A program made the position numbers and the translations under genes. This document shows positions 881-39,068 of a stretch of 45,294 nucleotides of DNA, piece by piece. The notes beneath the pieces are model-generated. The model was not told the origin of the DNA, did no database searches, and saw only the letters and a list, made by a program, of their open reading frames with translations. Numbering within the stretch: the first letter of the stretch is position 1; every line of letters starts with the position of its first letter. Where the stretch lies: sequence record OR061069; one strand, 5' to 3'. This DNA is from Escherichia phage M01.

Positions 881-1427
881 ATGAAGCTGAAACTCAAGCA
901 GCCATCGCCAGAGGTGGTGCAAGCGGCACATGAAGAAGCTGTTAGCGCAAACCGTCGCCGTAAACGACCGCGCGGCAAACAGAGCCTTTATCAGTCGTCC
1001 CGTAATTCCGCTGCGCTGTGGGACCCGGACTATTGCGACGCGTTAATCGAGTTCTTCGACCGACACGTCGTGGGAACTTGTGCCTACATCTAAGGGTGAC
1101 GAACGCCCACTGATTCAGGATAAACCGCCATCACTGGCCCGTTTCGCACTGCACATCGGCGTCACTACCCCAATTATTAAGCTGTGGCTGCGCGAGATTC
1201 CCGCATTTGCAGAAGCATACGAAACAGCGCAGGCGCTGGAAGAGGCGTACTTCACCGAGACAGGGGCCGCCGGCATCTCCGCTACGTTTGCCGCCGCTAA
1301 GCTGGGCCTCAGCAAAGAGAAACCGGTTGAATCCACCGAAGAAACAGCACCGACCGAGATTATTTTCGGTGTTGTGGAGCCTGTAGGTAAAATCGTTACC
1401 ACGAATATGGGCGAGGTAGAGGAATGA
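881..1427 (+). CDS. terminase small subunit (putative), split by a frameshift near 1047-1093
   Basis: RBS aagggga before ATG 881; sits directly upstream of terL; N-part frame 2, C-part frame 3. Confidence 0.5.
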
Positions 1428-2676
1428 GTATTCAGCTATCCGCGCCTCAGGCACTGTTCCTGAATTGCGATAACAAGTACAAAGCCTACGTCGGCGGCTT
1501 CGGAAGCGGCAAGACGTTTGTCGGCTGTCTCGACCTGCTTACGTTTATGCTCAAGCACCCCGGTACGCGCCTGGGCTACTTCGGCCCGACATACCCGGCC
1601 ATACGTGACATCTTCTACCCGACATTCGAGGAAGCGGCTAACCTGCTCGGCCTTGATGTGCTGGTTAAATCCGGCGACAAAGAAGTCGTTGTAACTCGCG
1701 GTAAGACGGTGCTCGGGACCGTTATCTGCCGTTCTATGGATAACCCCGGCTCGATAGTCGGCTTCAAAATCGCGGCTGCGGTCGTGGATGAGCTGGACGT
1801 ATTGAGCCGTGAGAAAGCCGAGCTGGCGTGGAACAAAATCGTAGCCCGCATGCGTCTGGTTATTCCCGGTGTAACTAACCACATCTCCGTCACCACGACG
1901 CCGGAAGGGTTTAAGTTCGTTTACGCCAAGTTCAAGGAGAACCCGACGCCGAGTTACTCAATGGTGCAGGCCTCCACCCACGAGAACGCGCAGATTCCTG
2001 CCGCCGGATTACATTAGCTCACTGACCGAGACTTACCCGGCGCAACTGATTAACGCGTACCTGAACGGCGAGTTCGTCAACCTGACATCCGGCAGCGTCT
2101 ATTACGCATACGACCGGCGCAAGCACCGCAGCAAAGAGACAATTCAACCGGGCGACACGCTGTACATCGGGCAGGACTTCAACGTTACGAAGAACGCCAG
2201 CGCCGTGTATGTACAGCGTAAAGATGGCTGGCACGCGGTTGCAGAGCTGAAGGGTCTGTTTGATACGCCGGACACCGTGCGCGTAATTACCGAGAAGTGG
2301 AAGTCACAAGGCCACCGCATCGTCGTTTACCCCGACGCTAGCGGCAAGAACCGTAAGACAAACTCGGCGTCAATCTCTGATATTGCATTACTCCAGCAGG
2401 CCGGGTTTCGATGTTCGCGCTAAATCAGCCAACCCACCGGTTAAAGACCGCGTTTTAGCCGTGAACACCGCGCTGGAAAAAGGTAAGCTGTGGGTTAATG
2501 ACCACTTATGTCCTGAGATAGCCAAGACGCTGGAACAGCAGGCATACGACGATAACGGAGAGCCGGCTAAAGACGGCGTCATTGACCATATGGCTGATGC
2601 TCTCGGCTATCCTGTAGTTTATGAGATGCCGGTGGTTAAACCAGTAATCAACATCCCGGTGACTTTCGCACTTTAA
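1424..2676 (+). CDS. terminase large subunit, split by frameshifts near 2000-2017 and 2400-2425
   Basis: Walker A GGFGSGKT; three consecutive frames give continuous terminase-like sequence. Confidence 0.8.
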
Positions 2677-2688
2677 GAGGATTATTAA

Positions 2689-4159
2689 ATGTTAACTATG
2701 AACGGTCAGAATCAGGGTGTTAAGACAAAACACCGGGAATGGCTGCATCACTTCGATAAATGGCAGAAGGTGCGCCACGCACTGGAGGGCGACCTTATCC
2801 GCTATCTGCGCAACGTCGGGAAGAACGAACCTGACCCCATCTACGCAGCCCAGCGCCAGGAAGAATACGAGAACGGCGCTATCTGCTACAACTTCACTAA
2901 ACGCACCCTGGCCGGGATGGTTGGTAGCGTCATGCGCAAAGACCCCGAACAGATTATCCCGCCTGAGCTTGAGTACCTGTTACGTAACGCCGACGGTTCG
3001 GGTGTAGGGCTGTGGCAGCACGCTCAGGATACTTTGATGGAGATTGACTCAGTAGGTCGTGGCGGGTTGCTGGTGGACGCCCCGGAGACAGCCGCGGCAA
3101 CGGCAGCCGAACAGAATGCGGGACTACTAAACCCGGTCATTGCATTCTATACCACAGAGAACATCATCAACTGGCGACTGACCCGCATCGGTTCAGTGAA
3201 CCGCGTGACGATGGTCGTGCTGCGCGAGGTGTGGGAGTACTCGGAGCCGGGCGCAGAGTTCGAAACCAAGTTCGGTGAGCAGTATCGCGTTCTCGATTTG
3301 ATTGACGGGCGCTACCGCCAGCGCATTTACCGCTTCGATGCCGAAGGTGGTGGCTAATGGTGAAGTAATCGAAATATTCCCGGAACTTGGCGAACAGTTA
3401 CGCGGCAAAATCCCGTTCACGTTCATTGGGGCAAGCAACAACGATGCGACCATCGACGATGCGCCTTTGCTGCCGTTAGCTGAGCTTAATATCGGACATT
3501 TCCGCAACAGCGCGGACAACGAGGAATCCAGCTTCGTTGTAGGGCAGCCCACTCTGTTCATCGCCCCTGGTGAAAACATGAGCATGGAACAGTGGAAAGA
3601 AGCCAACCCTCACGGCGTCCGCACGGGGTCGCGTTCAGGCCACAACATTGGTTACGGCGGCAATGCGTTTCTGGTTCAGGCAGGGGAGAACAACCTCGCC
3701 AAACAGAACATGCTGGATAAAGAGAATCAGGCGATTCAGATTGGTGCGCAGCTTATCACCCCGACGCAGCAAATCACCGCTGAATCGGCCCGTCTGCAAC
3801 GTGGTGCTGATACTTCAGTTATGGCAACAATCGCACGTAACGTAAGCATGGCGTACACTGATGCGCTGCGCTGGGTGGCTGCGATGCTTGGGCTGCGTGA
3901 AGGCACAGAGATTGAGTTCAAGCTGAATATGGAGTTCTTCCTGCAACCGATGACCGCTCAGGACCGTGCTCAGTGGATGGCGGATATTAACGCGGGTCTG
4001 TTACCGGCTACCGCTTATTATGCTGCGTTGCGCAAGGCAGGTGTAACTGACTGGACGGACGAGGACATTCAGAACGCTATTGAGGACGCACCTCTGCCGT
4101 TGGGTGCTGTTACTCAGGTGGCTGGAGAGATTCCGCAGTCGGCGCAACAACAGGAGTAA
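2689..4159 (+). CDS. portal protein, frameshift near 3300-3357
   Basis: about 490 aa across two frames; position after terL. Confidence 0.7.
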
Positions 4160-4165
4160 ATAGAA

Positions 4166-4195
4166 AGGCCCCTTAAGGGGCCTTATCTTTTCTTT
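4166..4195. terminator. bidirectional intrinsic terminator
   Basis: aaggcccc-ttaa-ggggcctt hairpin with flanking T-rich tract; between convergent genes. Confidence 0.6.
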
Positions 4196-4475
4196 ATACA
4201 AATATGAATCCATTGCTGGAAGAGGTGTATCGGGTGGTGCCGTTTTTCGTTTCGGGCCAACAGATATATGAGCGACCATGATACTCTACCCACCAAAGTT
4301 CTACATCGGCATCCCCATTAGGTCGCGTCAACCACCCGTGGTGCAGCCAATACTTGCGCCCTATTTTAAATATGCCTTCTTCGCATGAAGGCCTGCAACA
4401 GGCGACGCACTCTACTTGAACACCATCAACATGCACACATGTCATATGTAAATTACTGTTTGAATATTTAGCCAT
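4194..4475 (-). CDS. Cys-rich hypothetical protein (possible zinc-binding), moron-like
   Basis: 93 aa minus-strand ORF inside plus-strand late operon; RBS aaggaa; TATAAT 4521-4526 on minus strand upstream. Confidence 0.45.
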   Translation of the reverse strand: MAKYSNSNLHMTCVHVDGVQVECVACCRPSCEEGIFKIGRKYWLHHGWLTRPNGDADVELWWVEYHGRSYICWPETKNGTTRYTSSSNGFIFV

Positions 4476-4508
4476 TTCTAAATTCCTTATCTCTCGTTTT
4501 GATGTAAT

Positions 4509-4533
4509 GAATAGTACCCTATTATATTGGTGT
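4509..4533. promoter_or_regulatory. conserved 25-bp element copy A (gaatagtaccctattatattggtgt)
   Basis: near-identical to 6259-6283 and 16027-16051; IR aatag-tacc-ctatt; minus-strand reading gives TATAAT. Confidence 0.55.
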
Positions 4534-4583
4534 CTGCAAATATTATTTTTATGCGTTACACTGTCTATACTACAGGAGGGCTT

Positions 4584-5631
4584 ATGAGCTTACTTACATC
4601 CCTAATCAGCCACCAGATATGGCTACAACGCGCCGCATCCGGTGAAGTGAAAGACCTCGCACCGTTTATTAAGGAGATGCGGGACGAAATCAAACGGCAG
4701 GTGCTGTTATTCGGCGACGACGGGCGAAGCACTGCGCGACTGAATAAACTGTTACGCGACCTCGAAGAAGCACTGACAGGGCTTACAGGTGACTGGCAAA
4801 CAAAGCTGACAGAAGACCTTAAGGAACTGGCGGCGTATGAGGCGGAGTGGAACGTAAAGGCACTGACCGCCAACGTAGACGCGGAGTTTGTTACACCTAC
4901 CGCCGAACAGGTGTGGGCTGCTGCCGAGTTTCAACCGCTCTCATTGAGCGACAAGCCTGTTGATTTCTCTAAGCTGATGACCGGCTGGGGCGAAACAGAA
5001 GTCGAGCGCCTGGTAACCGGCGTTAAGATGGGCTTTGTACAAGGCCAAACCACACGGCAGATTGTTAAGAATGTCGTAGGCGCTGGCGGACTGGCCGACG
5101 TCTCTGAGCGTAACGCCGCTACCGTCATCCGCACCGCGCTGTCCCACGTGTCTAACGAAGCCCGTAACGAGACGTACCGCCAGAACGAAGACATCATCGA
5201 GAAGTACGAGTGGGTGTCGACGCTAGACAGCCGTACCAGTACGATTTGCAGAGCCAGAGACGGAATGACGTGGGAAATCGGTAAAGGGCCGATGCCGCCA
5301 GCCCATCCGAACTGCCGAAGTACGTGCACTGCACCTGTAATCAGTTCAGAGTTCGATTTCCTGGATAAAGGTGCAAAGCGAGCGGCTAAAGGTGCGGACG
5401 GCGGTACTCAGGTAAGCGCAGACACCACCTATTACGAGTTCCTGAAGCAACAACCGTCGTGGTTTCATCGATGAAGCGCTCGGCCCGGTGCGAGGCAAGA
5501 TTTTCCGTAACAGCGGTATATCACCGGAAGAGTTTCGCGTAATATCTGTAGATGGTTTCGGGAATCCGCTGACGCTTAAGCAGATGGCGGAACTCGATAA
5601 ACGTGTTGCTGATTATCTGAAAGGGGAATAA
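4584..5631 (+). CDS. head morphogenesis protein (SPP1 gp7 / Mu F-like), frameshift near 5460-5475
   Basis: RBS aggaggg before ATG 4584; C-terminal part continues in another frame to TAA 5629-5631. Confidence 0.65.
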
Positions 5632-6091
5632 TGATGGGCTTTTCAAAGTAACTGATGTACCGTCACGTCGCGTAGTCCAGTTTGCTCGTGTGTCAGGCTC
5701 CGGTGAGAACGTGGTGTCTATTGGGGATGAAAGTGTACTGGGTACGCCGGTAGATGATATGCCGTTTGCAGATAAAACCGGTATTGCGTTACCCGCGGCG
5801 GGCATGCTTTATGAGATTCCGTATCTGGCGGACGCTGGCGATGTGTATTTCTCTGTGCAACCGAAAGACGCTGAACTGGTTGACGGCAGCGCGACTATCA
5901 CTGTCGAAGTTAAGGCAGGTAAAGCGCCGTATACGCTGACCTGGTACAAAGACGGTAAGGAAGTAGTAAACGCCCCGGAAGAGGCTTTGTCTCTGACGGT
6001 TAACGCGGTGGGTGAATACTTCGTTAAAGTCACCGATGCCGATGGAGTAGAGGCGGTAAGTAAAGCGGCGAAGGTTACGAAGCCAGAATGA
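5631..6091 (+). CDS. Ig-like domain protein (possible capsid decoration); ATG 5631 frame broken at T4 run 5640-5643, alternative GTG start 5690
   Basis: Ig-like motif PYTLTWYKDG; frame 2 open from 5621 with no ATG. Confidence 0.5.
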
Positions 6092-6094
6092 TAA

Positions 6095-6122
6095 AAGGCC
6101 CCACTATGGGGCCTTATTTTTC
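6095..6122. terminator. bidirectional intrinsic terminator
   Basis: aaggcccc-actat-ggggcctt then TTTTT; A-tract upstream. Confidence 0.6.
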
Positions 6123-6258
6123 ATCAAAGTTCACCATTCCCGCTGACTCTGCGTCCTCGACCCGCGCTAACAGCCCACACAAACAATCCTAAATTAACCA
6201 GTAACACAAATGAAATTGCGTACCATCAGTAACTTCACCTCCACTATCACGTTTTACT

Positions 6259-6283
6259 GAATAGTACCCTATTATATTGGTGT
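6259..6283. promoter_or_regulatory. conserved 25-bp element copy B
   Basis: identical 25-mer; minus-strand TATAAT at 6271-6276. Confidence 0.55.
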
Positions 6284-6336
6284 GCGCAAACTATTTGTTT
6301 ACGTATTCCGGTTATTCCACTCGAATTGTAAATGTT

Positions 6337-7894: not shown

Positions 7895-8946
7895 ATGGCA
7901 ATTACCACTATCGGCGATATCGTAACTGGCAACATCCCGGTCCTGGCGTCTTACATGACCGAGGACCCGGTAGAAAAAACCGCGTTCTTCCAGTCTGGTA
8001 TTCTGACCCCGACTCCATACGCTGCCGAGATTGCCCGCGGCTCGTCCAACATCGCTAACATCCCTTTCTGGAAAGCGATTGATACTTCTATTGAGCCTAA
8101 CTACTCGAACGACGTATACCAGGACATCGCAACCCCGCGTAACGTGCAGACCGGCGAGATGATGGCGCGCGTTGCATACCTGAACGAAGGCTTCGGCCAG
8201 GCAGACCTGACTGTAGAACTGACCAGTCAGAATCCGCTGCAATCCGTAGCGTCCCGTCTGGATAACTTCTGGCAGCGCCAGGCGCAACGCCGTCTGATTG
8301 CTACCGCGCTCGGTCTGTACAACGACAACGTAGCCGCTGACCGATGAATACCATACGCAGAACGATATGGTTGTCGACGTGTCCTGCTTCTCTGGGCTTC
8401 GACGCTGGCGCATTCATCGACGCTACCCAGACTATGGGCGATGCGCTGATGGGCAACGGCGGTGAAGTGCTGGGCGCTATCGCGATGCACAGCTTCGTTT
8501 ATGCGCAGGCGCGTAAGCAGCAGCTTATCGACTTCATCAAAGATGCTGACAACGACACCCTGTTCGCCACCTACCAGGGCTACCGCGTGATTGTTGACGA
8601 CAGCATGACCGTAGTTGGCTCCGGCTCGAGCCGTAAGTTCATCTCCATCATCTTCGGCAACGGCGCTATCGGTTACGGTGAAGGTAATCCGTCCAACCCG
8701 CTGGAATACGAGCGCGAAGCATCTCGCGGTAACGGCGGCGGTGTCGAAACCCTGTGGACCCGTAAGACCTGGTTGCTGCACCCACTGGGCTACAGCTTCA
8801 CCAGTGCGGTAATCACCGGCAACGGCACCGAGACTGTAGCCCGCTCTGCTTCCTGGCAGGACCTGGCGAACGCCTCCAACTGGAACCGCGTTGTTGAACG
8901 TAAGCACGTACCGATTGCCTTCCTGGTAACTGGTGTTGGTGCTTAA
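7895..8946 (+). CDS. major capsid protein, frameshift near 8340
   Basis: about 350 aa across two frames; follows scaffold; terminator hairpin after. Confidence 0.65.
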
Positions 8947-11331: not shown

Positions 11332-11828
11332 GTTTCGCGCTTGATGTCTCTAAGTTCGTCGAAAAGGCGAAGAAGAATCCCGAGAAGGTGATGCGCCAGG
11401 TGTCTATCAAGCTGTTTTCCGCTATCATAAAGGCGAGTCCGGTAGATACTGGTCGCTTTCGTATGAACTGGATGGCCTCTGGCGGTACTCCTGCTTCCGG
11501 TACAAGTCGCGGTACTGACCCTAGCGGAGCGAACGCAATAAGTGCTATGGTTTCTACCGTGTCGGGTTTACCCGACTGGAGCGAGTTCACCCTGACAAAT
11601 AACCTGCCGTATGCGGAAGTTATAGAGTTCGGAGGTTACGCTACCGGCTTCCACGGCCCTAAGCGCCCTTCTAACTTAGGCTCTAAATTTGTTGGCCCAT
11701 TGAGGCCGAAAGCGCCCAGCAGAACAACCACAGACGGATATTCCCTTCAGGCTCCGCAAGGTGTTGTCCGGGTTAACGTTCAGCGATTCAATAAACTGCT
11801 CGAAGAAGAAGCGAGGAAGTATAAATAA
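11328..11828 (+). CDS. HK97 gp10-like tail component
   Basis: motif PVDTGRFRMNW. Confidence 0.55.
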   Translation: MSFALDVSKFVEKAKKNPEKVMRQVSIKLFSAIIKASPVDTGRFRMNWMASGGTPASGTSRGTDPSGANAISAMVSTVSGLPDWSEFTLTNNLPYAEVIEFGGYATGFHGPKRPSNLGSKFVGPLRPKAPSRTTTDGYSLQAPQGVVRVNVQRFNKLLEEEARKYK

Positions 11829-12241
11829 TGGGCTACTTTGAGGACTTAACCAAAGCGTTTGATGTGCCGCTGGTAGCCTTCGGAACAACCAACGGCATCA
11901 AGGTGGCGCTTGAAAACATCGACGCGCCGACGTCAACCGATACACCGTATCTGGCGAGTTACATGTTGCTGGCAGATACGGAACAGGCTGACTTATTCTT
12001 CACCGAGCAACGTTCTGGTATTTATCAGGTCGACATTAACTACGCATCGGTGAAAGGTAGCGCGCCAATCAATAAAATGGCAGACTTACTTAACACGGCG
12101 TTTAAAGCAGGTAAGTCATTTTCACGTAACGACATCTGCGCCGAGGTTCAATCGGTTAGCCTGGGGCCACTGATTGTAGAAAACGGATGGGCCAAAAGAC
12201 CATTGTCAATTAACTTTATCGCATTCACCAAGAGGCTGTGA
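11828..12241 (+). CDS. tail completion / terminator protein (putative)
   Basis: position immediately before major tail gene. Confidence 0.4.
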   Translation: MGYFEDLTKAFDVPLVAFGTTNGIKVALENIDAPTSTDTPYLASYMLLADTEQADLFFTEQRSGIYQVDINYASVKGSAPINKMADLLNTAFKAGKSFSRNDICAEVQSVSLGPLIVENGWAKRPLSINFIAFTKRL

Positions 12242-12243
12242 AT

Positions 12244-13410
12244 ATGGCTACAACTCCTTTTAAGGGCGCGAATACCGCGCAATTCTATGTGGCGGAAGTC
12301 ACCCCGGGCGTAACACCGACTAACCCGGTCTGGTCACCGTTGCGTAACACTGGCGGTGTTCCTGCTATCACCCGCGACACGCTGACCTCCAACGAACTGG
12401 ACGGCAGCCGTGAAACTACATCCATCCGCACCGGTAACAAACAGGTTAGCGGTGAATACGCGATCGAGCTTAGCTCGAAAAGCCAGGATGACTGGCTGGC
12501 TGGTGCTTTAGGCTCTACGTGGCAATCCGGTGTTTCCCTGTCCAGTCTGTCGATTACCGTCGCACCGGCAGGCAAGACGTTCACACGCGCTACCGGCAGC
12601 TTTATCACTGACGGAGTTGGGGTAGGCGACCTGATTGCGTTTACCGATTTAACAGGCGATAACGCAAAACCATTTATTGTTACTGCAGTAACGGCTACGG
12701 TTGTTACTGGTGCTGGCATCCAACACACCCTGACCACCGAGACAAAAACTAGTAAGGCTAAAACCGGCGACACGCTGGAAACCGGTAACACGTGTAAGAC
12801 GTTCTCTATCCTTACCTGGTACAAAGGCCAGTGCGGCGGTACTAACGCGTACACGTTAACCAAAGGCGTGGAAGTTTCTGGTTTTACCATCGAACAGGCT
12901 GTTAACGCGATGGTAACTGGCAGCTTCCCATTCATCGGTCGCAGTCAGGAGATTCTCACCACGCCGCCGACCGGTTCCAACTTCTCATCTGTTACTTTTG
13001 GTGATGAGCCGTTTTCTTCGGTTGACGTTTCCGTGTTCGATGGTTCTACGCCGTTGCGATGCGACAGTCTGACTATCACCAACGATAACAGCGCGTCGGC
13101 GCAGTTCGAACTTGGTAACACTAACGTAGCGTTTGTTGAGCGTAGCCGCGCGGCTAACACTTTCTCCATCTCCGGCAAGCTGTACGACATGGCGATGATT
13201 CAGAAGTTTATCAACGAACAGCAGGTAGAGATTAACTCTATTCTGGCGGGGGTAAACGGGGCTATGTCTTTCAGTTTGAAACGCGCAGAGCTTACGGCGG
13301 TCACACCAGAGATTGGCGGACCCGAGTCAATCACTCAGTCCATTGAAGGCCAGGCTACCGGCAACCAGTACCAGTCGTCTATTGTCATCCAGCGTATCAC
13401 CTACCCATAA
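12244..13410 (+). CDS. major tail protein
   Basis: 388 aa, Thr/Gly-rich; sits before the chaperone and tape measure genes. Confidence 0.55.
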   Translation: MATTPFKGANTAQFYVAEVTPGVTPTNPVWSPLRNTGGVPAITRDTLTSNELDGSRETTSIRTGNKQVSGEYAIELSSKSQDDWLAGALGSTWQSGVSLSSLSITVAPAGKTFTRATGSFITDGVGVGDLIAFTDLTGDNAKPFIVTAVTATVVTGAGIQHTLTTETKTSKAKTGDTLETGNTCKTFSILTWYKGQCGGTNAYTLTKGVEVSGFTIEQAVNAMVTGSFPFIGRSQEILTTPPTGSNFSSVTFGDEPFSSVDVSVFDGSTPLRCDSLTITNDNSASAQFELGNTNVAFVERSRAANTFSISGKLYDMAMIQKFINEQQVEINSILAGVNGAMSFSLKRAELTAVTPEIGGPESITQSIEGQATGNQYQSSIVIQRITYP

Positions 13411-13412
13411 AA

Positions 13413-13440
13413 CTAAGGCCCCTGACGGGGCCTTTTTCTT
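13413..13440. terminator. bidirectional intrinsic terminator
   Basis: aaggcccc-tgac-ggggcctt then TTTTT; overlaps stop of minus-strand kinase gene. Confidence 0.6.
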
Positions 13441-13993
13441 ACAAACCTAATTTTAAAGCAATGTCTATAACGTTCGATTTAACATCACCCGGTATGATGT
13501 AGGTATCGTAATCTTTTACACCATCAACGCCATACAGATAACCACGGCTGTCCCCCTCAAATGTATAGCCTTCTCGGTGCAAGCGAACGATTCTTACATC
13601 ATGACCCGCGGCGACGATAGGGGCTACTTCACTGGCGAATCCACCGTCGGACACTACAAAAACTTCGTTGCCGTCTGGCAAGTTTTCAGCAAGATACTTA
13701 CCGAAATAATCATCACCGAATACCGGTTTAATGAATTGCTCAGAAACGGCAATCATGAACTGACGACGGGACAACCCATTAAGAAAACCCTCTGGCTTTT
13801 CTTTCCGTGCCCGGTCGTCGTAGCCGTCGAGAAATTCGCGGTAAGCATCCGGGCCTAACGCTGCCAAAGCAATATCGAACATTGGATTCTTGAAACTGGT
13901 AGTTCCTTTCGCAAAGCCCATTTCTACCAGCGCCATAGCAAGTGTGTCTTTCCCGCAACCCGCCGGACCATTAAGAATAATTACCTTAGCCAT
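13439..13993 (-). CDS. P-loop nucleotide kinase (dNMP kinase-like)
   Basis: Walker A GPAGCGKDT resembles T4 gp1 GVKRSGKDT. Confidence 0.6.
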   Translation of the reverse strand: MAKVIILNGPAGCGKDTLAMALVEMGFAKGTTSFKNPMFDIALAALGPDAYREFLDGYDDRARKEKPEGFLNGLSRRQFMIAVSEQFIKPVFGDDYFGKYLAENLPDGNEVFVVSDGGFASEVAPIVAAGHDVRIVRLHREGYTFEGDSRGYLYGVDGVKDYDTYIIPGDVKSNVIDIALKLGL

Positions 13994-14478
13994 TATTTAT
14001 CACTCCCGTGTGATTTTAAGTGTGTAGAGTTACCGTTACAGTCGTATCCAGTGACAGCGTGTGTGGTTATGCCGAGGCCTCGGAAATGCTTAATTACCGC
14101 CGGAGAATCATCGAATGCACACAAGATTCTCTCCAGCCCGATAGCACGCAACACCTCTTCTTTAATTGCGATGTCTTTTCTGTTGTCGTGTTTGCCGCGC
14201 ATGATTAGCTGATAAAATTCGACGCGGTGGCGCTGCAACCACATTCTGGTTTCTTTTTCTGCATCATCACTACGGCCCGTTAAAATAATAACGGCGTAGC
14301 GACGATTGAGGGCGTTACACAGTTCGATGTTATCTCTAATTGGTTCATCATCTTTGCACGCCATGTTAAAGGGCTTCCACGCCCACGTTTCGTTGTAGTT
14401 ATCTTTCGGCAGCAGGTGCAAACGATGCGTACCATCAGCCAATGTCCCATCTAAATCGAAAATTACAATATCTTTCAT
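13993..14478 (-). CDS. HAD-family phosphatase resembling T4 Pnk 3-prime-phosphatase domain
   Basis: motifs FDLDGTLA, IILTGRSDD and C-terminal DD motif align with T4 Pnk phosphatase recalled from memory. Confidence 0.6.
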   Translation of the reverse strand: MKDIVIFDLDGTLADGTHRLHLLPKDNYNETWAWKPFNMACKDDEPIRDNIELCNALNRRYAVIILTGRSDDAEKETRMWLQRHRVEFYQLIMRGKHDNRKDIAIKEEVLRAIGLERILCAFDDSPAVIKHFRGLGITTHAVTGYDCNGNSTHLKSHGSDK

Positions 14479-15659
14479 CCCAGCATCTCCGGTGAAATAG
14501 TTAAACGTGCGACCTCGCCATATTCGGCGCTATAAGTAATTACATTTGCACTACGGCCTGACATCCATCCGCCGCGGGAGGCGTAGGCATCCTTAGCCGC
14601 CAGGGTGCGGTGTTGCTCAACAATCATGTTACGGCTTTCTACAATCTTTTGATGGTGGAGATGCCCGACATGTGCGTAACTGTACTCGCTTTCGCCGAAT
14701 GCTTTACGGAACTTAGCTATCATAATCGGCTCGACTACCGTCAAACCGTGCATTTATGCCCGTGTGTGAAAGAACAGCGTCGTTTTGCCGTGTTGCACCA
14801 TCTTGTAAACATCCGGCGACGTATCGACGAACACACGAGGCTCGTTGTCGTATAGCGTACTGAACATCTCAGCCAACCAAATCATACCTGATTCGTCATG
14901 GTTCCCTTGCACGATAAGCAGGCGAACATTTTTATGTTTAACCAGAGCCATATCGACAACACGGCGGACCATACGAATCATGTAGCGGACCAGTTTCTGA
15001 TAGCGCGTATCCGCGTCAAGAACATGACCACTCGCTGGCGTAACGGCATCCAGACTATCAAAGTGCGCGAAGTCACCAAGAAGGTTAATAACCCCTGTTC
15101 CCGCATCTGGCGCTTTCTGAAACGCAGCATCAAACCACCGAGAGAACAGGTCTTCTGCAATCTTCATATCCCAGTCATCGCCGCTCTCGTCGGCCCATGC
15201 CAGCATACCGAGATGGAAATCAGACACAGTGTAAAGGTTGAGTAGCTTGTCGTCTCGTTTGGTGCGAACGGCTTTAACAGGAGCAACGGGGGTAATCTCC
15301 GACTTCATGCCCTCGATTACGGCCTTCATTAACTCGACCTGACGTTCCGCATCGGTGTCGGTCTTAACCCATTGCAGTTTAGTGTTGCCTAACTCGTCCA
15401 CAAGTGACGATGTTCCTTTAATCTTGTAGCCATCTGGCACAAGGTGGCTAACGTCCCGCCCGTGGCCTACGCCTTTCTTAGCCAGCTTCGCTTTACGGAT
15501 GCGAATAACGCGGTCTGAGATGCCGTATTTACGGGCGATGTCGATATTCTTCATACCGGCGTTCAATTCTTCCTGTAACTGTTCGTCGGTTATTTTCTTC
15601 CGGGCCATGCTTACTTCCTCGTGTTTAGGATTTGTCCTATTTAACCACAGTGCATTCAT
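14475..15659 (-). CDS. calcineurin-like (Mre11/SbcD-like) metallophosphoesterase with N-terminal HTH, frameshift near 14753
   Basis: motifs SDFHLG, GDFAHFD, GNHD, GHLHH; HTH-like first 50 aa. Confidence 0.6.
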
Positions 15660-15673
15660 TTAAATAAAGGCGA

Positions 15674-16000
15674 CTATTTACTTTCCGCGCCTATCGCCCA
15701 CCCGGTCATCACCATTTGCAGGCGGGTGGCTGTCAGTAGGCTGTAAAACGCGTCTCCGTTTTTCTCTACCGAACGTATTACAGAGTATGTTACGGCTTGC
15801 GGAGGCAGGCCCGATTTACCAACCCCTACGGCAGCCTCACACTCGCGAACGGTAGAGTCCTTAAATGCCTTTACAATAGTAGGGTCGGCTTTATCGAGCA
15901 CACCAGAAGTCATAAGAACAGATTCACTAAATACCTGTTCGCACGGGGACCCAAAAGCAGCAAAAGACATAAACCCCAGAGCTAATACTAATTTACGCAT
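15674..16000 (-). CDS. secreted/periplasmic small protein
   Basis: N-terminal signal peptide; RBS gaggaa; TATAAT 16039-16044 on minus strand upstream. Confidence 0.45.
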   Translation of the reverse strand: MRKLVLALGFMSFAAFGSPCEQVFSESVLMTSGVLDKADPTIVKAFKDSTVRECEAAVGVGKSGLPPQAVTYSVIRSVEKNGDAFYSLLTATRLQMVMTGWAIGAESK

Positions 16001-16026
16001 AATTATTTCCTCAGTAAGTTACAGGT

Positions 16027-16051
16027 GAATAGTACCCTATTATATTGGGGT
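16027..16051. promoter_or_regulatory. conserved 25-bp element copy C; minus-strand promoter of the 13439-16000 cassette
   Basis: minus-strand TATAAT about 40 nt upstream of ATG 16000. Confidence 0.55.
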
Positions 16052-16164
16052 GCGCAAGTAGTGTGTTAGAATAAGTTTGCGCCTAGTGTCGCACACGAAA
16101 AGCGGGTGGTTCCCGTCTGGCGCGTCAACCTTAACTTGTAACCTCTTAACCAAAGGATTAAATA

Positions 16165-16581
16165 ATGAAACTCTCTGATTTTTATTTTGCGGACCGCCAT
16201 GCTGCTGGCACTAAAATGCCCATCCTTCTGCCTAGCGGTAAAGATTCCGGTGAATGGTTGCAAGTCATCGGCCCTGATTGTGACGCTGGCGTTCGTGCTG
16301 GCCGTGCCTATACAACGGCAATTCGACGCCTTACGGAAGAACTTGCGCCGTTAGATAAAGAGTGCGAGGCACTGAATAACTGGGCGCGCTATAACGATGA
16401 GAAGGGCTGGCGGGTGATGGACTTGAACAAGCAGCTTGCCGTTGAAATCGTCACCGGTTGGTCGTTCGACGAACCTTTCAGCAAAGAGGCACTGGCTAAC
16501 CTGTTCGACCAGTACAGTGGGCTGGCGGAGGCCGTAGTTAAGCATCACACCGACAGTCGCGAGAAACTCTCGGAAAAGTAA
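16165..16581 (+). CDS. tail assembly chaperone (lambda G-like)
   Basis: position between major tail and tape measure; -1 frame ORF overlaps its 3-prime end. Confidence 0.6.
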   Translation: MKLSDFYFADRHAAGTKMPILLPSGKDSGEWLQVIGPDCDAGVRAGRAYTTAIRRLTEELAPLDKECEALNNWARYNDEKGWRVMDLNKQLAVEIVTGWSFDEPFSKEALANLFDQYSGLAEAVVKHHTDSREKLSEK

Positions 16582-16943
16582 AAGCGCTGTATGAATTTGC
16601 GCAATGGTGCTTTGTCGACCGCCACAAACGTAAGCAATTCGACGACATAGCGGCAGGCCACCAGGCGGCTTTGATTGCAATGGGCGTGATTAAAGAACCG
16701 CAGATGAAAGAAGCGACGGGGCCTGAATGCCCCGTTTCTCTTATCGACGTGTTCGAGAAATACCGCGCCATTAAATTCCTACAGCGCGAAACAGATGATA
16801 CTATCGTCATAATCCCGCGCGATGCGCTCAAATGGCAAGATTTGGTAGCGTTTCGTGATGTCGCCGGTTACGGCATAAGTTTGTTCGAAGCCGAGGTTAT
16901 CATGGGCTTAGACGGAATATTTGAGGGCAGAGAAGATGGCTGA
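16165..16943 (+). CDS. tail assembly chaperone -1 frameshift fusion product (lambda GT-like)
   Basis: frame 3 open from 16542; candidate slip site G-GAA-AAG at 16572-16578 just before the frame-1 stop. Confidence 0.45.
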
Positions 16944-19248
16944 TACGGCTTCCCTAATTGCCAGAGTAAAAACAGAAGGCGCCGACGTAGCCGCCAAACA
17001 GCTTGACGCTATGGCGGCATCCGCAGACCGGGCGGATACCGCGGTAAACAAGCTGACTCCGGATGTCAATAAAGTTAACACAGCTACCTCTAAAGCAGCC
17101 TCTGACGGTTTCGCTAAGTTCCGTAACGCCGCCGGGCAGGTGGGCTTCCAGGTACAGGACATGGTTGTCCAGTTGCAGTCCGGCACGTCTGCATTCGTAG
17201 CAATCGGGCAACAAGGCTCGCAGCTTGCAGGTGCTTTCGGCCCCGGTGGCGCGGTGCTCGGGGCTGTAATTGCTCTTGCGTCTGCTGTTGGCGGCGTCCT
17301 GTACAAATCGCTAACCGAAGCCGAAGGTAGTTCAAAAGACCTCGAAACCGCACAGAAACAGTTAAAAGATACTTTCCAGCAAACGGCATCTGGCTCTCTC
17401 GAACTGACAGACGGCCTCATCCAGCTTACCCAAATAAGCCGAGAAGCGGCAGAGACTCAGCTTGCTCTGGCTAAGGCTAACGCGGACCTTATCGCGCAGC
17501 AAACAGCTAAAGCTGTTCGTGAGGACGCAGAATCATGGGAAACGTGGAAAGCCTCCACGGCGTCGGCGATTAGCCAGTACGATGCACTGGTCTCTAAGGG
17601 TGCGGATGTAGGCGACACGTTAGAAAAACTAGGCGGCACTTACGAGGGTAACATCGTAGGCGTCAACATGCTGGCGCAGAATATCGCGGAGCTTAGCAGT
17701 AAGTTCGGGGTTAACCGTGACCAGGCGCTGGAGATGATAGCGGCGCAGAGCGCGTTTAACAAAGAGCCAACCGCGGAGAATGCCCGCCGCATCGCCGATG
17801 TGTTTACCGACTGGCTGGGTAACACAAAACAGTTGAACCCGGAGCTTATCCGCCTCACCGATAATGCCAACAAGAACGCCACGGCACTGGAAAACGCAGA
17901 GAAGTCAGCAAACGCGGCGGCAGAGGCCCAAAAGAATCTTGGTCGTAACGTCAACTCAACCACGCAGAGATTCCAGGAACAGAACGAAGCTATCGTCAAG
18001 AATCAGCAAATTGCCATCTTAAGAGACCGTGAGCGCATCAGGGCGCAAGCTGAGATGGATAAACAAGCGTTCGCTAAACGTGAAGCTGTCACCAAAGAAC
18101 AGATCGCCGCGTATAATGCCGCTCGTGACACGGAAGCACAGCAAGACATCGCCCGCATCGACGCTACCGAAAAAGCGAAGGCAGACCGTGAGGCTAAATC
18201 GAACGAGAAACGTCTGGCGGCGCAGGCCAAACGTGAAGAAACGGCGGCACAACGCCAGAAGAAAGCTGCGGAAGATTTCCTCGCTACGGTTGACCGTACA
18301 ACCGGAGATGAAATTTCTCGCATCACGGCGGCCGAAGAGCAGAAACTGGCGAAACTTGAAGAGTTCAACCGCGCCGGAACGATAAGCCAGCAGCAGTACG
18401 AAAACGCCAAAACTCAGATTATGCTCACAGCTGAGCAGGCCAGACAGGAAGAACTGGATAAGAAAAGAAAAGAGCAGCAGGAAAAGCAGCAGAAAGGCGA
18501 GGACTTCATGGCGCAGATTATGGGTCAGAATGCTGCCGAGCTTGAGCTTCTTGACATCCAGGAACAGCAAAAGCTGGCGGTCGCGGATAAGTACCGAGAA
18601 CAGGGGCTTATTAGCGAGAAGCAGTATCAGGCCGCGCTTAACGCCATCAACGAGCAGTACGCCACGAAGCGTGCCGACGCAACGGCAACCGCCTTCGGTA
18701 ACATGGCTTCAAACATCGGTTCGGCTTTGGGGGAGGCTTCCGGCGCGTACAAGGCATTCGCTATCGTACAGGCCACTATAGCCACATACACCGCGGCTAT
18801 CGAGGCTTACAAGTCAACGGCAGCTATCCCCGTTGTTGGTCCGTTCCTGGCCCCTGTAGCCGCTGCCGCTGCCGTTGGGGCGGGTATGGCGCAGGTTTCC
18901 GCTATCCGGTCCGCGCGTGAACAGGGCGGACAGTTATCCGCAGGGCAGGCTTCCACCATCGCCGAACGCGGTAAACCCGAAGTTATCATGCCCGCTGGCG
19001 CATCGCGTGTGCGTACCGCGCAGCAGATGAAAGAAATTATGGGGCAAAACGGGTCTTCTTCCGGCCCGTCTAATGTTACTATCGTAAACAACACGAGTTC
19101 TCAAATCGGCAACGTATCCACTGAGCAAGATGATGAAGGCCGTTTGCGTATCATCATCGAAGAGCAAGTGGCTGCGTCTTTGCAGAACAGCAACAGCAAG
19201 ATTAGCAAGGCCCGAAAGGCCACAAGAAATGCGCCGGGGTTCAAATAA
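16936..19248 (+). CDS. tail tape measure protein
   Basis: 771 aa, Ala/Gln/Lys-rich coiled-coil; RBS gagggcagag. Confidence 0.85.
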   Translation: MADTASLIARVKTEGADVAAKQLDAMAASADRADTAVNKLTPDVNKVNTATSKAASDGFAKFRNAAGQVGFQVQDMVVQLQSGTSAFVAIGQQGSQLAGAFGPGGAVLGAVIALASAVGGVLYKSLTEAEGSSKDLETAQKQLKDTFQQTASGSLELTDGLIQLTQISREAAETQLALAKANADLIAQQTAKAVREDAESWETWKASTASAISQYDALVSKGADVGDTLEKLGGTYEGNIVGVNMLAQNIAELSSKFGVNRDQALEMIAAQSAFNKEPTAENARRIADVFTDWLGNTKQLNPELIRLTDNANKNATALENAEKSANAAAEAQKNLGRNVNSTTQRFQEQNEAIVKNQQIAILRDRERIRAQAEMDKQAFAKREAVTKEQIAAYNAARDTEAQQDIARIDATEKAKADREAKSNEKRLAAQAKREETAAQRQKKAAEDFLATVDRTTGDEISRITAAEEQKLAKLEEFNRAGTISQQQYENAKTQIMLTAEQARQEELDKKRKEQQEKQQKGEDFMAQIMGQNAAELELLDIQEQQKLAVADKYREQGLISEKQYQAALNAINEQYATKRADATATAFGNMASNIGSALGEASGAYKAFAIVQATIATYTAAIEAYKSTAAIPVVGPFLAPVAAAAAVGAGMAQVSAIRSAREQGGQLSAGQASTIAERGKPEVIMPAGASRVRTAQQMKEIMGQNGSSSGPSNVTIVNNTSSQIGNVSTEQDDEGRLRIIIEEQVAASLQNSNSKISKARKATRNAPGFK

Positions 19249-26086: not shown

Positions 26087-26600
26087 CTGGTAAATTTCCT
26101 CGCAAGATACGTTATTTCTTCTTCACAAAGTTCATCAAGGTCGTTTGACACAAATCCTCTGGTGAATGTTTTGCTGAACTTTAAGCCAGCTTTATCATTG
26201 TCGCCCGCGCACACCCAGTCATACGGCAAAAGTGACATTTGCTGCCGTAGGTCAGTTGGTATATTTGACCCCAAGTGCGCTTACGGCATTGAACCCGCAA
26301 TTCATCAAAGCAACAGCTTTAAATATGCTTTCGGTAACAAATACGGTCCCGCTTTCGCGGAAGGTATTCCAACCCCCATAAACAAGGTCTTGTTGTTCTG
26401 GTGAAGTACCGCGCGTCTTTAGGATTTTTACAGTTCTTTTCAGCATGTGGCTTGTAATGCTGGTATCCGCGAAGCCTACCATCAAACCCCCACAGGTAAA
26501 ATGTAGCTACTCCAGAGCCTAAGACTACACGTAAACGGTCAGCGTCAAAACCTCGCGACAGCAGATGCACCTTAAGTAGTAACTCCTCGCAATCCATCAT
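26083..26600 (-). CDS. TOPRIM-domain primase-like protein, frameshifted
   Basis: motifs VFVTESIFKA and GDNDKAG across three frames. Confidence 0.45.
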
Positions 26601-28023
26601 TTCTTACCTCGTCTCTTCATGTAATTAAACAATTCTTCCTGCACCGATTTCTTCTCGTCGGTACGCGCAGCGACAACCTCGTCCAGCGTGTCTTTAGCAA
26701 CGATATGATAGAGGAACACCGGTCGCTCGTGACCCGCCTGTTTCTGGCGGACAGGGCCTATGCGTTCGACAACCTGCAAATAGTGCTCAAGGTTCCAGCC
26801 TTGCGAGATGAATGCCAGATGGTGTCCTCCGTCCTGTAAATTCAAACCATGACCGGCTGACGCGGGATGCACGCATAAGATTTCTATTTCACCCGCGGTT
26901 CCACGCCTCCATCTGCTTATTACCCTTCGCGCCTTTGGCAAACGCCTGCGCCTGCGGGAATCGCTTAAGGATGCGCTCCAGTTCGTGCTTGAACTGATAG
27001 GCCACCAGTAACGGTAGCGCCCTGTAACTCCTCAACAATGGACTCGAGCGCATCAAGTTTCGTGTCGTGCACTTTCTCCCATTCTTTGGTTGATTCGCCA
27101 TCTGGCCCCGATACATACACGGCACCGGAGGCAATCTGTAGGCACTTCGACGTCTTCGCCGCAGCGTTAGCCGCTTCAACTTCTCCGCTCTCCAGTTCCG
27201 CGAATAACTTCTCCTCCATATCGATGTACGCCTGACGTGCTTTCTTCGGCAGGTCGATTTCAACCGGCACAATAATCGGCGCTTCACACCCGAACCACTC
27301 GGCGGCGTCAATCGTGAGACTAATGTCCTTCATCTTCTGGTGAATTTCATTATCCGCACCCGGTCGCGCATGATACTCACGCGCCATAGCTGACTTACCT
27401 TTCTGTACCGAGTTAAACCAGCGGTCGGTGAAGGCGGTGTATGAAGACCCGAGGCGCTCACCAGCGTCGATAAACCAGTTCTGGCCCCACAAGTCTTTGA
27501 GGCCGTTTGGCGACGGTGTACCTGTCAGGTTGATAAAACGTTTAACCTTACCGAACGCAACTTTACTAAGCGCCTTCGCTCTCTTACTGCCACCTGAACG
27601 GCTGCGGAATGATTTCAGCTTCGTGCTCTCGTCTGCAACGATAACAGTAAATGGCCAGTCGTCTTTGCCGTAGTAGTCAATCAGCCACTCAATAACTTCG
27701 TAGTTTGTGCAAACCACGTTAGCATCAGACTCCAGCGCCGCGATGCGGCGCTTCTCTGAACCGGTGGCATCGACGACACGCAGACAGGGAAGTTCCACTT
27801 CGTCTTGCTCCGCGGGCCACGTACCGGACGCAACCCGCAGCGGGGCGAGGATTAACACGCGGTCCTCTTCAGTAAGCTGCCCGTTGCGGAACAGTCGGTT
27901 TAACACCCACATTGTCGACGAGGTCTTGCCGCCGCCCATACCGCACCAGATATTGCAACGTGGGTGCTGTAGCATAAACGACGTCATTATTTTCTGATAT
28001 TCCCTGCGCCTAAACTTACTCAT
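26597..28023 (-). CDS. SNF2-family DNA helicase, frameshifts near 26900-26965
   Basis: Walker A GMGGGKT; DEAD-box-like VIVADES; helicase C-terminal motifs in adjacent frame. Confidence 0.7.
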
Positions 28024-29292: not shown

Positions 29293-29424
29293 TCATTCCA
29301 GCACCCACAGATAAATTGCGATGAACATGCCCAATACGGCTACCATCATGCCGTATTGGCCCTCGTGACAGTAGACACCGGCAGCGAATCCCGCCAGTAC
29401 CGCGATAATCAGTTTACTTAGCAT
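29293..29424 (-). CDS. small membrane protein (43 aa)
   Basis: hydrophobic; ATG just after polymerase stop. Confidence 0.3.
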   Translation of the reverse strand: MLSKLIIAVLAGFAAGVYCHEGQYGMMVAVLGMFIAIYLWVLE

Positions 29425-31628
29425 AACGTTTTAACTCCTGCACCTTCCGCTACAAGAGGGAACCCCTCGGCCCACTCCGGCAATTCGCACATCAATTTTT
29501 CCAGTTCAGCCACCGTGTACTCAGGTAAGTCCGGAGTTTCACAGACTAATCTCATCGTGGACACGAAAGCACGATCGGGTAGCCGTCCGCCCTCAACATT
29601 CAATCAGTCGCATATAGCCAGCAAATCACGGCACAGCGCCTGAATGCAATGTTTTCGCAGAGCTTTGCCGCCGTGGGTGTACAGGGTAGTCCCCACTGGC
29701 GGGTTAACTGGTTTTCACCCTGATACTTGATTCGCACATTCGTGTTTACCCGTCCGTCTTCGTCTGTTTCCTTTGTCACACTAACGCCGATTCCCGGATA
29801 CGAGAGGATGCGACCCGACGGCAACTCCATACACAACCACCAACCAGGAACCTTCCTGCCGGATGAATCAAATTCTACAGTACGCCATATGCGGATAGCA
29901 CGCTACGCCATTCTTGCGCAGATGCGCCCCGCCGCAAAATTCACGACCAGGATTACGAACAGCAGCTAAAATTCCGTCTTTAAGGTCGCGCCAGAAAGCT
30001 ACTGTTTCAGGGTGAGACTCCCGCCACATACGCTTGATAGCGTCGCAGGTACGCCACACTTTCTTATCAAGAATATACGATGGTCGGTCATCCTTTTCAC
30101 CGGGATGTGGCGGTCGCTTTGCTTCCTGAATACGCGCCCACTCATACCCACGTGCGGTAGCAGCCCAGATGTGGTCGGGGAAAGTCCCGTCCATTGTTTT
30201 TGCCATCTCAATAAGGTCAAGACCTAAGTTTTTAGCAAACGTAACGAACGCTCCGACGCCCCCTCATAGCCGAGGCCAAGCTCGCAAGCCTTGCCTATCT
30301 GTCTGATTTCCTTGAAGTTTTTCTTAATATCATCTGGGTCCATGCCAAACATCTTACCCGCGGTTACATAGTAAATATCAACCCGGCGCGGAACGTATCA
30401 AACGCGGTTTCTCCCCAGCCAGCCACGCAAGCCCGCGACCTTCAACGTTAGAGTAGTCAGCAACAACAAACTTATGCCCTTCTTCCGGTATGATGCAGCT
30501 ACGCACGGTAGATGCCGTCAGTTTTGCCACATCGAAACGGCGATGCGCTCGGCCCTTAAGTAACGCTGAAATGCCTTTATCCAGTTCATCATCGTGATAG
30601 TACCCGCGTGCGAGATTCTGCGGCTGGAAGCCTTTACCCGCCCATCGCAGAGTACGTTTTGCCCCGCCATACTGTAAACAACCGCGACGGCGGTCGTCCG
30701 ACGAGCGGCCTAACAGCAGCGGGTTATATTTCGTTGATGCGGTGGACGCGGCCCCGAGGCGCATTTCGATAATCGTGCGGGCGTCGTCAGGTAAATCATC
30801 GTCCGCCAGCAGGTCATGAAGCGTTGACTTCTGCGCGTTGTGGATGCGGTGCGCGGGGGCGAGTTCACGCAGAATCGGCAGAAAGTCTTTACCGGTAAGC
30901 GAGCCGCCGTATTTGCGTTGGGCTTCTTCCTGTAACTGTGCCTTGTGCTTCTCCACGGCTTCAATCGCGGCTTCCGCCAGTGCAACGTCAACCTTAAACC
31001 CACGGTCATTGATTAACTGGTCAAGTTCCAGTACACGGTCCTCGAACTCGGAGTTACCCCAACGCGGCAGCTTATGAAAGACTTCACGCATCGCGGTGAT
31101 GTCGCTCACGGCGTACTTGATGAACAGCGCCCACTCGTCCGGGTGTGTTTCGGCGGTGTAACGGCGGATTTTGTAGTTCTTCGGTGTAGGTTTGGAGAAA
31201 CGCTGAATCAGCGCCTTGCCGCGTTTATCTTTCGCGTTGTCCGCGGATACGCACAAGCACTTCGCACAATGCATCGAGCGACCCCGGCAGCGCGTGACGA
31301 AACGCCCAAATCATCGTATCAATGGTGTTGCTTACCGGAATATCAAAGCCCCAGCAGTGCTTCATGATGAGCCTGTCGAACATTGAGCCGTTGTGCCACA
31401 CCATCTTAATGCGGCTGTTCGGCTTAACCAGGCGGCGTAAGTGCGCGGTGCAAATCACCCGGCATGTCGCTGCTGTCGGTGCAATCCCATACCCTGCACA
31501 GGCTCGTCGTCAAAAGCATAGGTACAGATTAGCACTTCGGTAGTTGGGTGTTCGGCATAAGCGTAGGAGCCGACTTTCTTTAAATCGGCTTCGGAGAATG
31601 TTTCAAAGTCCAGGTATAAGTAGCTCAT
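29418..31628 (-). CDS. family A DNA polymerase with 3-prime-5-prime exonuclease domain, at least five frameshifts
   Basis: Exo motifs LDFETFS and WHNGSMFD; polymerase motifs DYSNVEGR and RQIGKACELGLGYEGG spread over several frames. Confidence 0.75.
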
Positions 31629-38955: not shown

Positions 38956-39042
38956 ACCAAGTAATAAGAATAAAGGCACAACCCTACCTGAAGAATCACA
39001 ACGGCAACGTAACCATTTTCAATGAATCTCTTGCACACCCCA

Positions 39043-39068
39043 ACATAATAGGATACTATTCACTTATC
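39043..39068 (+). promoter_or_regulatory. promoter with IR copy (-10 CATAAT, aatag-gata-ctatt)
   Basis: same architecture as copies A-C; upstream of ATG 39094. Confidence 0.45.

Follow-up and report, generated by a model that had tools for sequence, protein, structure and literature searches.

In the genome of Escherichia phage M01 (sequence record OR061069; 45,294 nucleotides, the whole of which is called the window below), four genes on the minus strand, encoding a P-loop kinase, a HAD phosphatase, a metallophosphoesterase with an N-terminal helix-turn-helix (HTH) and a small protein with a signal-peptide-like N-terminus, are flanked by the tail-tube gene and the tail assembly chaperone gene (Table 1). 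This cassette is a separately transcribed enzyme operon, antisense to the late tail operon. We consider it about an even proposition that the operon supports the phage DNA polymerase by means of DNA breakdown, DNA-end processing and phosphorylation of deoxynucleoside monophosphates (dNMPs). The source genome belongs to a coliphage of the Guernseyvirinae (Kagunavirus-type), and the 2.9-kb cassette region shows 99.4% identity to phage CR01 and about 91% to K1H, with matches in 270 phage records.

In the reading favoured here, the HTH-metallophosphoesterase, a predicted nuclease, would release or trim DNA, the phosphatase would take blocking 3'-phosphates off ends or nucleotides, and the kinase would convert 5'-dNMPs to the diphosphates (dNDPs), which the host nucleoside diphosphate kinase would then turn into triphosphates (dNTPs). 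Its transcription would begin at a promoter-like element that also serves the opening of the early region. Gene order, translational coupling, the assignments to families and folds and the distribution over related phages come directly from the analysis; the substrates, expression early in infection and the participation of all three enzymes in one pathway are what we infer. The reading is favoured because the kinase is of the gp1 type and has replication or nuclease genes as neighbours elsewhere, because the same trio occurs in the Webervirus TSK1 and a nucleotide-supply role has been proposed for such genes (PMC13164509), with nucleotide recycling being described for T1 and TLS (PMC11447400), and because of the fold of the phosphoesterase, which appears closest to nuclease-type members, the phage's own replication genes, the shared early element and the operon structure. 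K1H has a DNA polymerase and a helicase-primase of its own, and its annotation shows no further nucleotide-metabolism gene. T1 and TLS are known to break down the host DNA and to reuse its nucleotides, the responsible genes not having been identified (PMC11447400); a separate and improbable possibility is that the near-universal HTH-phosphoesterase of T1-, Dhillon- and Jersey-like phages is the long-sought enzyme behind the degradation of the host chromosome and the nucleotide reuse in T1.

The kinase and the phosphatase

Pfam recognises the P-loop alone in the kinase, and sequence searches of the PDB, either with the single sequence or with the family profile, returned P-loop matches only. 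The protein falls into phrog_139 (4.1e-45), the same PHROG as T4 gp1 (1.8e-65), and its P-loop, GPAGCGKDT, carries an Asp after the Lys (GKDT) in a nucleoside monophosphate kinase fold, as in gp1-type enzymes. The AlphaFold2 model, with a predicted local distance difference test score (pLDDT) of 94, has the T4 gp1 structure 1DEK as its top PDB fold match (E 2.3e-5, template modelling score 0.67), followed by phosphomevalonate and adenylate kinases, and no T4 Pnk entry appears among the top 50 matches. When 39 members of the kinase family were aligned as a profile with 24 gp1 homologues by hhalign, a probability of 98% was obtained over 177 columns (E 1.7e-13), the family from the window lacking an insertion of about 50 residues present in gp1. 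The gp1-family alignment was required for this result, since single T4 sequences (gp1 and Pnk, checked against 1DEK and 1LTQ) were insufficient: the kinase family reached a probability of 58% over 73 columns with gp1 and aligned with Pnk at the P-loop alone. The T4 Pnk kinase domain falls into PHROGs other than phrog_139, to which the window kinase has no match, and the alignment of the two proteins was limited to 24 P-loop columns. The gp1 homologues listed all carry PF21448, whereas the window kinase does not match this family at E values up to 1, and at E values up to 0.01 the 39 members did not hit PF21448 either.

As judged from these sequence and fold comparisons, the kinase is to be regarded as a divergent short branch of the gp1 dNMP kinase superfamily. 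An assignment as a Pnk-type 5'-OH polynucleotide kinase was rejected, because the homology to gp1 extends over the full length and only the P-loop is common with T4 Pnk. The first-pass annotation, which had been made from the letters of the stretch, had already described a P-loop kinase with a Walker A motif like that of T4 gp1, in agreement with the GKDT motif and the best fold match to 1DEK.

The HAD protein matches PF25109 (HAD_PNKP) over residues 3-143 of 161 at 1.8e-18, with 67.5 bits against a cut-off of 27.6, and phrog_415 at 1.9e-65. Its sequence matches in the PDB are Pnkp1 (4xrp, 1e-5) and the T4 Pnk phosphatase (5uj0, 1.7e-3). The DxDGT, GR, DxRKD and DD motifs have their counterparts in T4 Pnk, and an alignment to residues 149-301 of the T4 enzyme, which requires D165, D167, R176, R213, D254, D277 and D278, shows D8, D10, R19, R69, D98/D102, D123 and D124 to be invariant. 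The protein is therefore best classified by its sequence as a Pnk-type 3'-phosphatase consisting of the phosphatase only, which agrees with the earlier recognition of a match to the T4 Pnk 3'-phosphatase domain. A role as 5'-nucleotidase was rejected, the NT5C family scoring 21.5 bits and thus under its cut-off of 24.8. The existing label "3'-phosphatase, 5'-polynucleotide kinase" overstates this phosphatase-only protein of 161 amino acids, and the neighbouring kinase is better read as a gp1-type nucleotide kinase than as a polynucleotide kinase.

These assignments bear on the proposal, made in the first-pass annotation, of a split end-healing set, which could repair tRNA or DNA cut by host defence nucleases. 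In such a set, phosphatase and kinase would restore 3'-OH and 5'-phosphate ends, perhaps with the phosphoesterase as a 2',3'-cyclic phosphodiesterase, and a host ligase would seal them. The HAD protein is clearly a Pnk-type 3'-phosphatase with aligned catalytic residues, its gene is translationally coupled to that of a P-loop kinase, mirroring the kinase and phosphatase of T4 Pnk, and bacterial Pnkp is known to have a metallophosphoesterase as its healing module. However, the kinase is gp1-type and has only the P-loop in common with the kinase domain of Pnk, the annotations of K1H and of the GenBank record PQ474795.1 contain no ligase (the earlier note had likewise found none in the window), and none of the best fold matches of the phosphoesterase is a Pnkp phosphatase entry. 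The host ligase RtcB is known to join 3'-phosphate or cyclic phosphate directly to 5'-OH ends, so healing would be of no help to it. The reported sensitivity of Guernseyvirinae to the HEPN-domain defence protein Ec2ApeA is a further, weak counter-argument. Since neither a recognisable polynucleotide 5'-kinase nor an annotated ligase is present, the end-healing label holds for the phosphatase only, and such a set appears unlikely. The same note had named a dNMP kinase accompanied by a 5'-nucleotidase as the outcome that would speak against end healing; the kinase was indeed placed with gp1, but the HAD protein turned out to be Pnk-type and not a 5'-nucleotidase. Slightly less probable still is a non-orthologous split replacement of T4 Pnk, with a gp1-type scaffold recruited for 5'-OH polynucleotide ends; if true, the pair and the HTH-nuclease would repair or exploit ends made by defence nucleases.

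The metallophosphoesterase and its interrupted reading frame

The phosphoesterase family is represented in 2,050 phage records and, at E values up to 0.001, by 4,607 clusters at 50% identity. A first homologue search gave near-identical sequences only, and a search of representative clusters provided the diversity for the structural model. Among 40 diverse family members the motifs DxH, GD, GNHD, H and GHxH are all kept, with D130, H132, G178, D179, N236, H237, H282, G314 and H317 being invariant. The model (pLDDT 90.7) consists of an N-terminal three-helix domain with weak LuxR/sigma-region-4-like matches, a hairpin-helix linker domain and the catalytic domain, with which it ends, no C-terminal capping domain being present. 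The protein scores under the Pfam Metallophos cut-offs, and none of the four cassette proteins reached a threshold in NCBIfam. The fold of the phosphoesterase appears closest to the DP1, Mre11 and SbcD nucleases; the Foldseek matches are generic, with Mre11 and Rv0805 tied at the top, and neither K1H nor PQ474795.1 has an annotated SbcC- or Rad50-like gene. It seems reasonable to regard the modelled protein as Mre11-like and probably a nuclease.

The tie with Rv0805, a cyclic-nucleotide phosphodiesterase, would also fit an enzyme without nuclease activity that degrades nucleotide second messengers and thereby counters defence by cyclic-nucleotide signalling. We regard this as highly improbable, because the N-terminal HTH points to nucleic acid binding and several phage families retain the gene persistently as part of their core, unlike a patchy counter-defence gene.

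The HTH, the motifs conserved in the family and the apparently DP1/Mre11/SbcD-like fold agree with the HTH-Mre11-like phosphoesterase described previously, but the gene had been presented without a break, while its frame in the window is split. An in-frame TAA at the HHGH metal-binding motif cuts it into ORFs (open reading frames) of 284/301 and 92 amino acids, the likelier start being the ATG at 15608, preceded by GAGGAAG, rather than that at 15659. The window encodes FFHTRA*MHGLTVVEP where K1H has FFHHGHKARFDAIEP, so that motif IV, with its catalytic His, is destroyed by the stop. Alignment with CR01 and K1H shows that the stop arises from three individual 1-nt insertions in a segment of about 30 nt. 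The stretch is 83 nt long in all 258 relatives that cover it well, against 86 nt in the window. The allele was found in none of 280 phage records, IMG/VR contained no exact match, and over 100 orthologue clusters have an uninterrupted protein of 376 amino acids.

Similar breaks occur throughout the genome (Table 1). Relative to the K1H proteins, the large terminase is distributed over three frames, the portal over two and a helicase over three, an exonuclease is in five pieces and the helicase-primase in two; the PQ474795.1 annotation, whose record is also 45,294 bp long and whose coordinates coincide with all ORFs of the window, divides the DNA polymerase into six parts and the capsid protein into two. 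Because breaks in such essential genes are incompatible with a viable phage, the phosphoesterase stop is, on the evidence of these alignments, almost certainly a sequencing or assembly error, and the gene is treated as intact here. Recognition of the split as an assembly error in a low-quality genome is of corrective value.

Two side observations concern other copies of this gene. The PQ474795.1 copy is identical to the window over 13500-14500 and carries the same phosphoesterase stop with its three insertions, while over 11800-17699 as a whole it differs at 524 of 5,900 positions (about 9%), without indels and mostly in third codon positions, which could be explained by a reference-guided consensus or a mixed phage population. 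In CR01, the phosphoesterase is annotated as two hypothetical proteins and is broken elsewhere (CR01 about 3480-3490, corresponding to about 15285-15290 of the window), reading TTAC-CCCG against TTACCCCCG with one C missing; judging by the C-run, this looks like a homopolymer sequencing error.

Gene arrangement, control elements and occurrence in related phages

The positions of the genes agree with the four co-oriented minus-strand genes recorded in the first-pass annotation. The three enzyme genes are connected by overlapping stop and start codons (TAATG at 13993, ATGA at 14475-14478), which fits one translationally coupled operon. The bidirectional terminator previously placed at 13413-13440 was recovered as a strong hairpin with a stem of 8 pairs (6 of them G-C), a 4-nt loop and T-runs on each strand.

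Table 1. Coordinates of the cassette, its borders and the interrupted genes of the window
Feature	Position	Strand	Remarks
Tail-tube gene	12238-13410	+	borders cassette on kinase side
Bidirectional intrinsic terminator	13415-13434	both	common to plus-strand tail gene and minus-strand cassette
P-loop kinase gene, 184 amino acids	13439-13993	-	gp1-type, GPAGCGKDT
HAD phosphatase gene, 161 amino acids	13993-14478	-	Pnk 3'-phosphatase type, stand-alone
HTH-metallophosphoesterase gene, interrupted in window	14475-15608 (alternative start 15659)	-	376 amino acids in intact orthologues
In-frame TAA within HHGH motif	14754-14756	-	three 1-nt insertions, probable assembly artefact
Gene of 108-amino-acid protein, signal-peptide-like N-terminus	15674-16000	-	phrog_14165, variable slot
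Promoter-like element, 32 nt	16026-16057	-	TTGCGC-N17-TACTAT; TATAAT embedded at 16039-16044
Tail assembly chaperone gene	16165-16581	+	borders cassette on secreted-protein side
Split terminase gene	1424-2676		frameshifts or in-frame stops vs K1H
Split portal gene	2689-4159		frameshifts or in-frame stops vs K1H
Split capsid gene	7895-8946		frameshifts or in-frame stops vs K1H
Split helicase gene	26597-28023		breaks vs K1H
Split DNA polymerase gene	29418-31628		breaks vs K1H
Split helicase-primase gene	35880-38122		breaks vs K1H

Upstream of the cassette, the sequence CACCCCAATATAATAGGGTACTATT at 16028-16052(-) recurs in the window with up to two mismatches at 4510-4534(-), 6260-6284(-) and 39036-39060(+), giving four copies compared with 0.00 expected from shuffles. 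The aligned copies share a conserved block of about 32 nt, TTGCnnACnCCAAyATAATAGGrTACTATTCA, and all are located at divergent gene junctions. The element is kept in the same place upstream of the cassette in CR01, K1H and K1G; K1H has only two copies, the second of which is at the head of the early region. The promoter assigned to the cassette in the earlier note holds as far as the position of TATAAT within the conserved element is concerned, but the invariant TTGC is only 7 nt upstream of it, so that TTGCGC-N17-TACTAT is an at least as plausible reading of the -35 and -10 boxes, and a promoter consensus scan of the window listed neither of the two. The element would drive the cassette as a putative promoter, and the cassette would be co-regulated with the early region through the element common to both.

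As to the other copies, two lie in the head module: that at 4510-4534 is upstream of a minus-strand ORF of 93 amino acids (4194-4475) without a PHROG match, and no minus-strand ORF of at least 45 amino acids begins just downstream of that at 6260-6284. The copy at 39036-39060 marks the divergent junction opening the early region. On the plus strand, a promoter-like site at 16018-16046 (GTTACA-N17-TATATT, 9/12 matches) overlaps the conserved element; beyond the terminator, this site could set off transcription of the chaperone and tape-measure genes anew.

A view on the related phages shows that the phosphoesterase is a core gene at this locus in the Guernseyvirinae, and that the phosphatase-kinase pair is a variable add-on, carried by this phage and about 50 relatives. 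The whole block is present in 46 of the 270 matching records. The cassette is not an insertion particular to this phage, a question that the earlier note had raised. In Jerseyvirus and many Kagunavirus members the phosphoesterase is followed by other small genes instead of the pair, and the BASEL isolate Bas71 of Kagunavirus also appears to be without the pair; a 76-amino-acid ORF after the SETP7 phosphoesterase was tested as a kinase remnant and found to be unrelated. The protein of 108 amino acids, with its N-terminal signal-peptide-like segment (MRKLVLALGFMSFAAFG), belongs to phrog_14165 (5.5e-55), which has no assigned function, and occurs in 98 records, all from Guernseyvirinae. In K1G and many others its slot instead holds a superinfection-immunity gene of 63 amino acids (phrog_1039), and the 108-amino-acid protein is an occupant of this variable slot unrelated to the enzymes, probably with a role in superinfection exclusion.

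Outside the Guernseyvirinae, the Dhillonvirus Envy encodes an HTH-phosphoesterase of 76% identity (4992-6134) directly upstream of the small terminase gene, with no phosphatase or kinase gene beside it. In the T1-like Webervirus TSK1 the order phosphoesterase, phosphatase, kinase recurs, with an overlap between the last two genes, and the trio adjoins replication and lysis genes. TLS has its phosphatase and kinase genes in the early region, separated from one another as well as from the phosphoesterase. The kinase of ISAO8 comes after a metallophosphoesterase in a block of polymerase, exonuclease and endonuclease VII genes; this phosphoesterase was tested as an orthologue of that in the window and proved to be a different metallophosphoesterase. 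In Bas87 the kinase-family gene overlaps a 5'-3' exonuclease gene. A "DNA repair exonuclease" is present in 508 of 522 Drexlerviridae, and PNK and dNMP-kinase genes are its commonest followers where an SH3 gene is missing, a nucleotide-supply role having been proposed for them (PMC13164509).

This patchwork may also be read as a variable accessory island without any joint pathway, in which independently useful genes (a core nuclease, a nucleotide kinase, a phosphatase, exclusion proteins, HNH endonucleases and Ant-like proteins) gather by virtue of a common early promoter and terminator. Upstream of the phosphoesterase there is either the secreted protein or the superinfection-immunity gene, and downstream either the pair, the unrelated 76-amino-acid ORF, or an HNH endonuclease and an Ant-like protein. 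The last arrangement is seen in the Salmonella phage horsemountain (Jerseyvirus, 3671-5195), in which an HNH endonuclease and a protein of the Ant-like anti-repressor family follow the phosphoesterase, indicating a general accessory island at this locus. The solitary phosphoesterase of Dhillonvirus beside the small terminase gene and the scattered genes of TLS point in the same direction. However, the phosphatase and kinase genes overlap in Kagunavirus and Webervirus alike, the order of the trio is the same in both families, and unrelated metallophosphoesterases or exonucleases adjoin the kinase family in other lineages. We hold such an island to be rather doubtful, if a more serious contender than the end-healing set.

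Assessment and comparison with known systems

Several observations weigh against a supply of nucleotides to the phage polymerase as the joint function of the operon. A 3'-phosphatase is not readily placed in a simple salvage route via 5'-dNMPs, which limits our confidence in this role, and the closest characterised relatives of the HAD protein heal polynucleotide ends. The kinase is missed by PF21448, so its substrate could differ from that of gp1. Most Guernseyvirinae and Dhillonvirus have the phosphoesterase without the pair, and in TLS the pair is away from it, indicating that a joint pathway is not required. The genes themselves offer little novelty, being already annotated in K1G, K1H and many other records and known as a trio in Drexlerviridae; no experimental work on the cassette was found in the literature for either Guernseyvirinae or Drexlerviridae. 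Among the uncharacterised enzymes of small siphoviruses of coliform hosts, that is of coliphages, the HTH-phosphoesterase is nevertheless one of the most widespread, and its repeated association with a 3'-phosphatase and a dNMP kinase represents a testable candidate for a system of DNA precursor supply.

Among known enzymes, T4 gp1 (1DEK) shares with the window kinase the GKDT P-loop, the PHROG, the best fold match and full-length profile homology, but it is larger (241 versus 184 amino acids), shows only about 19-24% identity and belongs to PF21448, which misses the window kinase. The HAD protein is in the same phosphatase-domain family (PF25109, phrog_415) as T4 Pnk (PseT; 1LTQ, 5UJ0) and Capnocytophaga Pnkp1 (4XRP). 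T4 Pnk, however, carries a fused 5'-kinase domain and has an RNA ligase as partner, whereas the HAD protein stands alone, its neighbour kinase is of a different family and the cassette is without a ligase. Both T4 Pnk with Rnl1 and the Pnkp-Hen1 system combine a ligase with the healing enzymes, and none is annotated in K1H or PQ474795.1. The Pnkp of Clostridium thermocellum presumably resembles the window set in its combination of a P-loop kinase and a metallophosphoesterase, but Pnkp-Hen1 also has a ligase/adenylyltransferase domain and Hen1, which the window set does not have, its kinase is not the gp1-type found here, and the window phosphoesterase showed no special similarity to this Pnkp in fold searches.

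Compared with the Mre11/SbcD nucleases and the proofreading exonuclease DP1 of archaeal PolD, the window phosphoesterase is without a C-terminal capping domain, with no Rad50/SbcC partner annotated, and contains the N-terminal three-helix HTH and the hairpin-helix domain instead. Finally, the run of exonuclease, PNK and dNMP kinase genes in Drexlerviridae (TSK1 gp52-54) is orthologous to the trio of the window and has the same order, orientation and phosphatase/kinase overlap; it stands beside the lysis cassette and the replication genes, whereas the trio of the window runs antisense in the tail module, with the gene for the secreted protein upstream.

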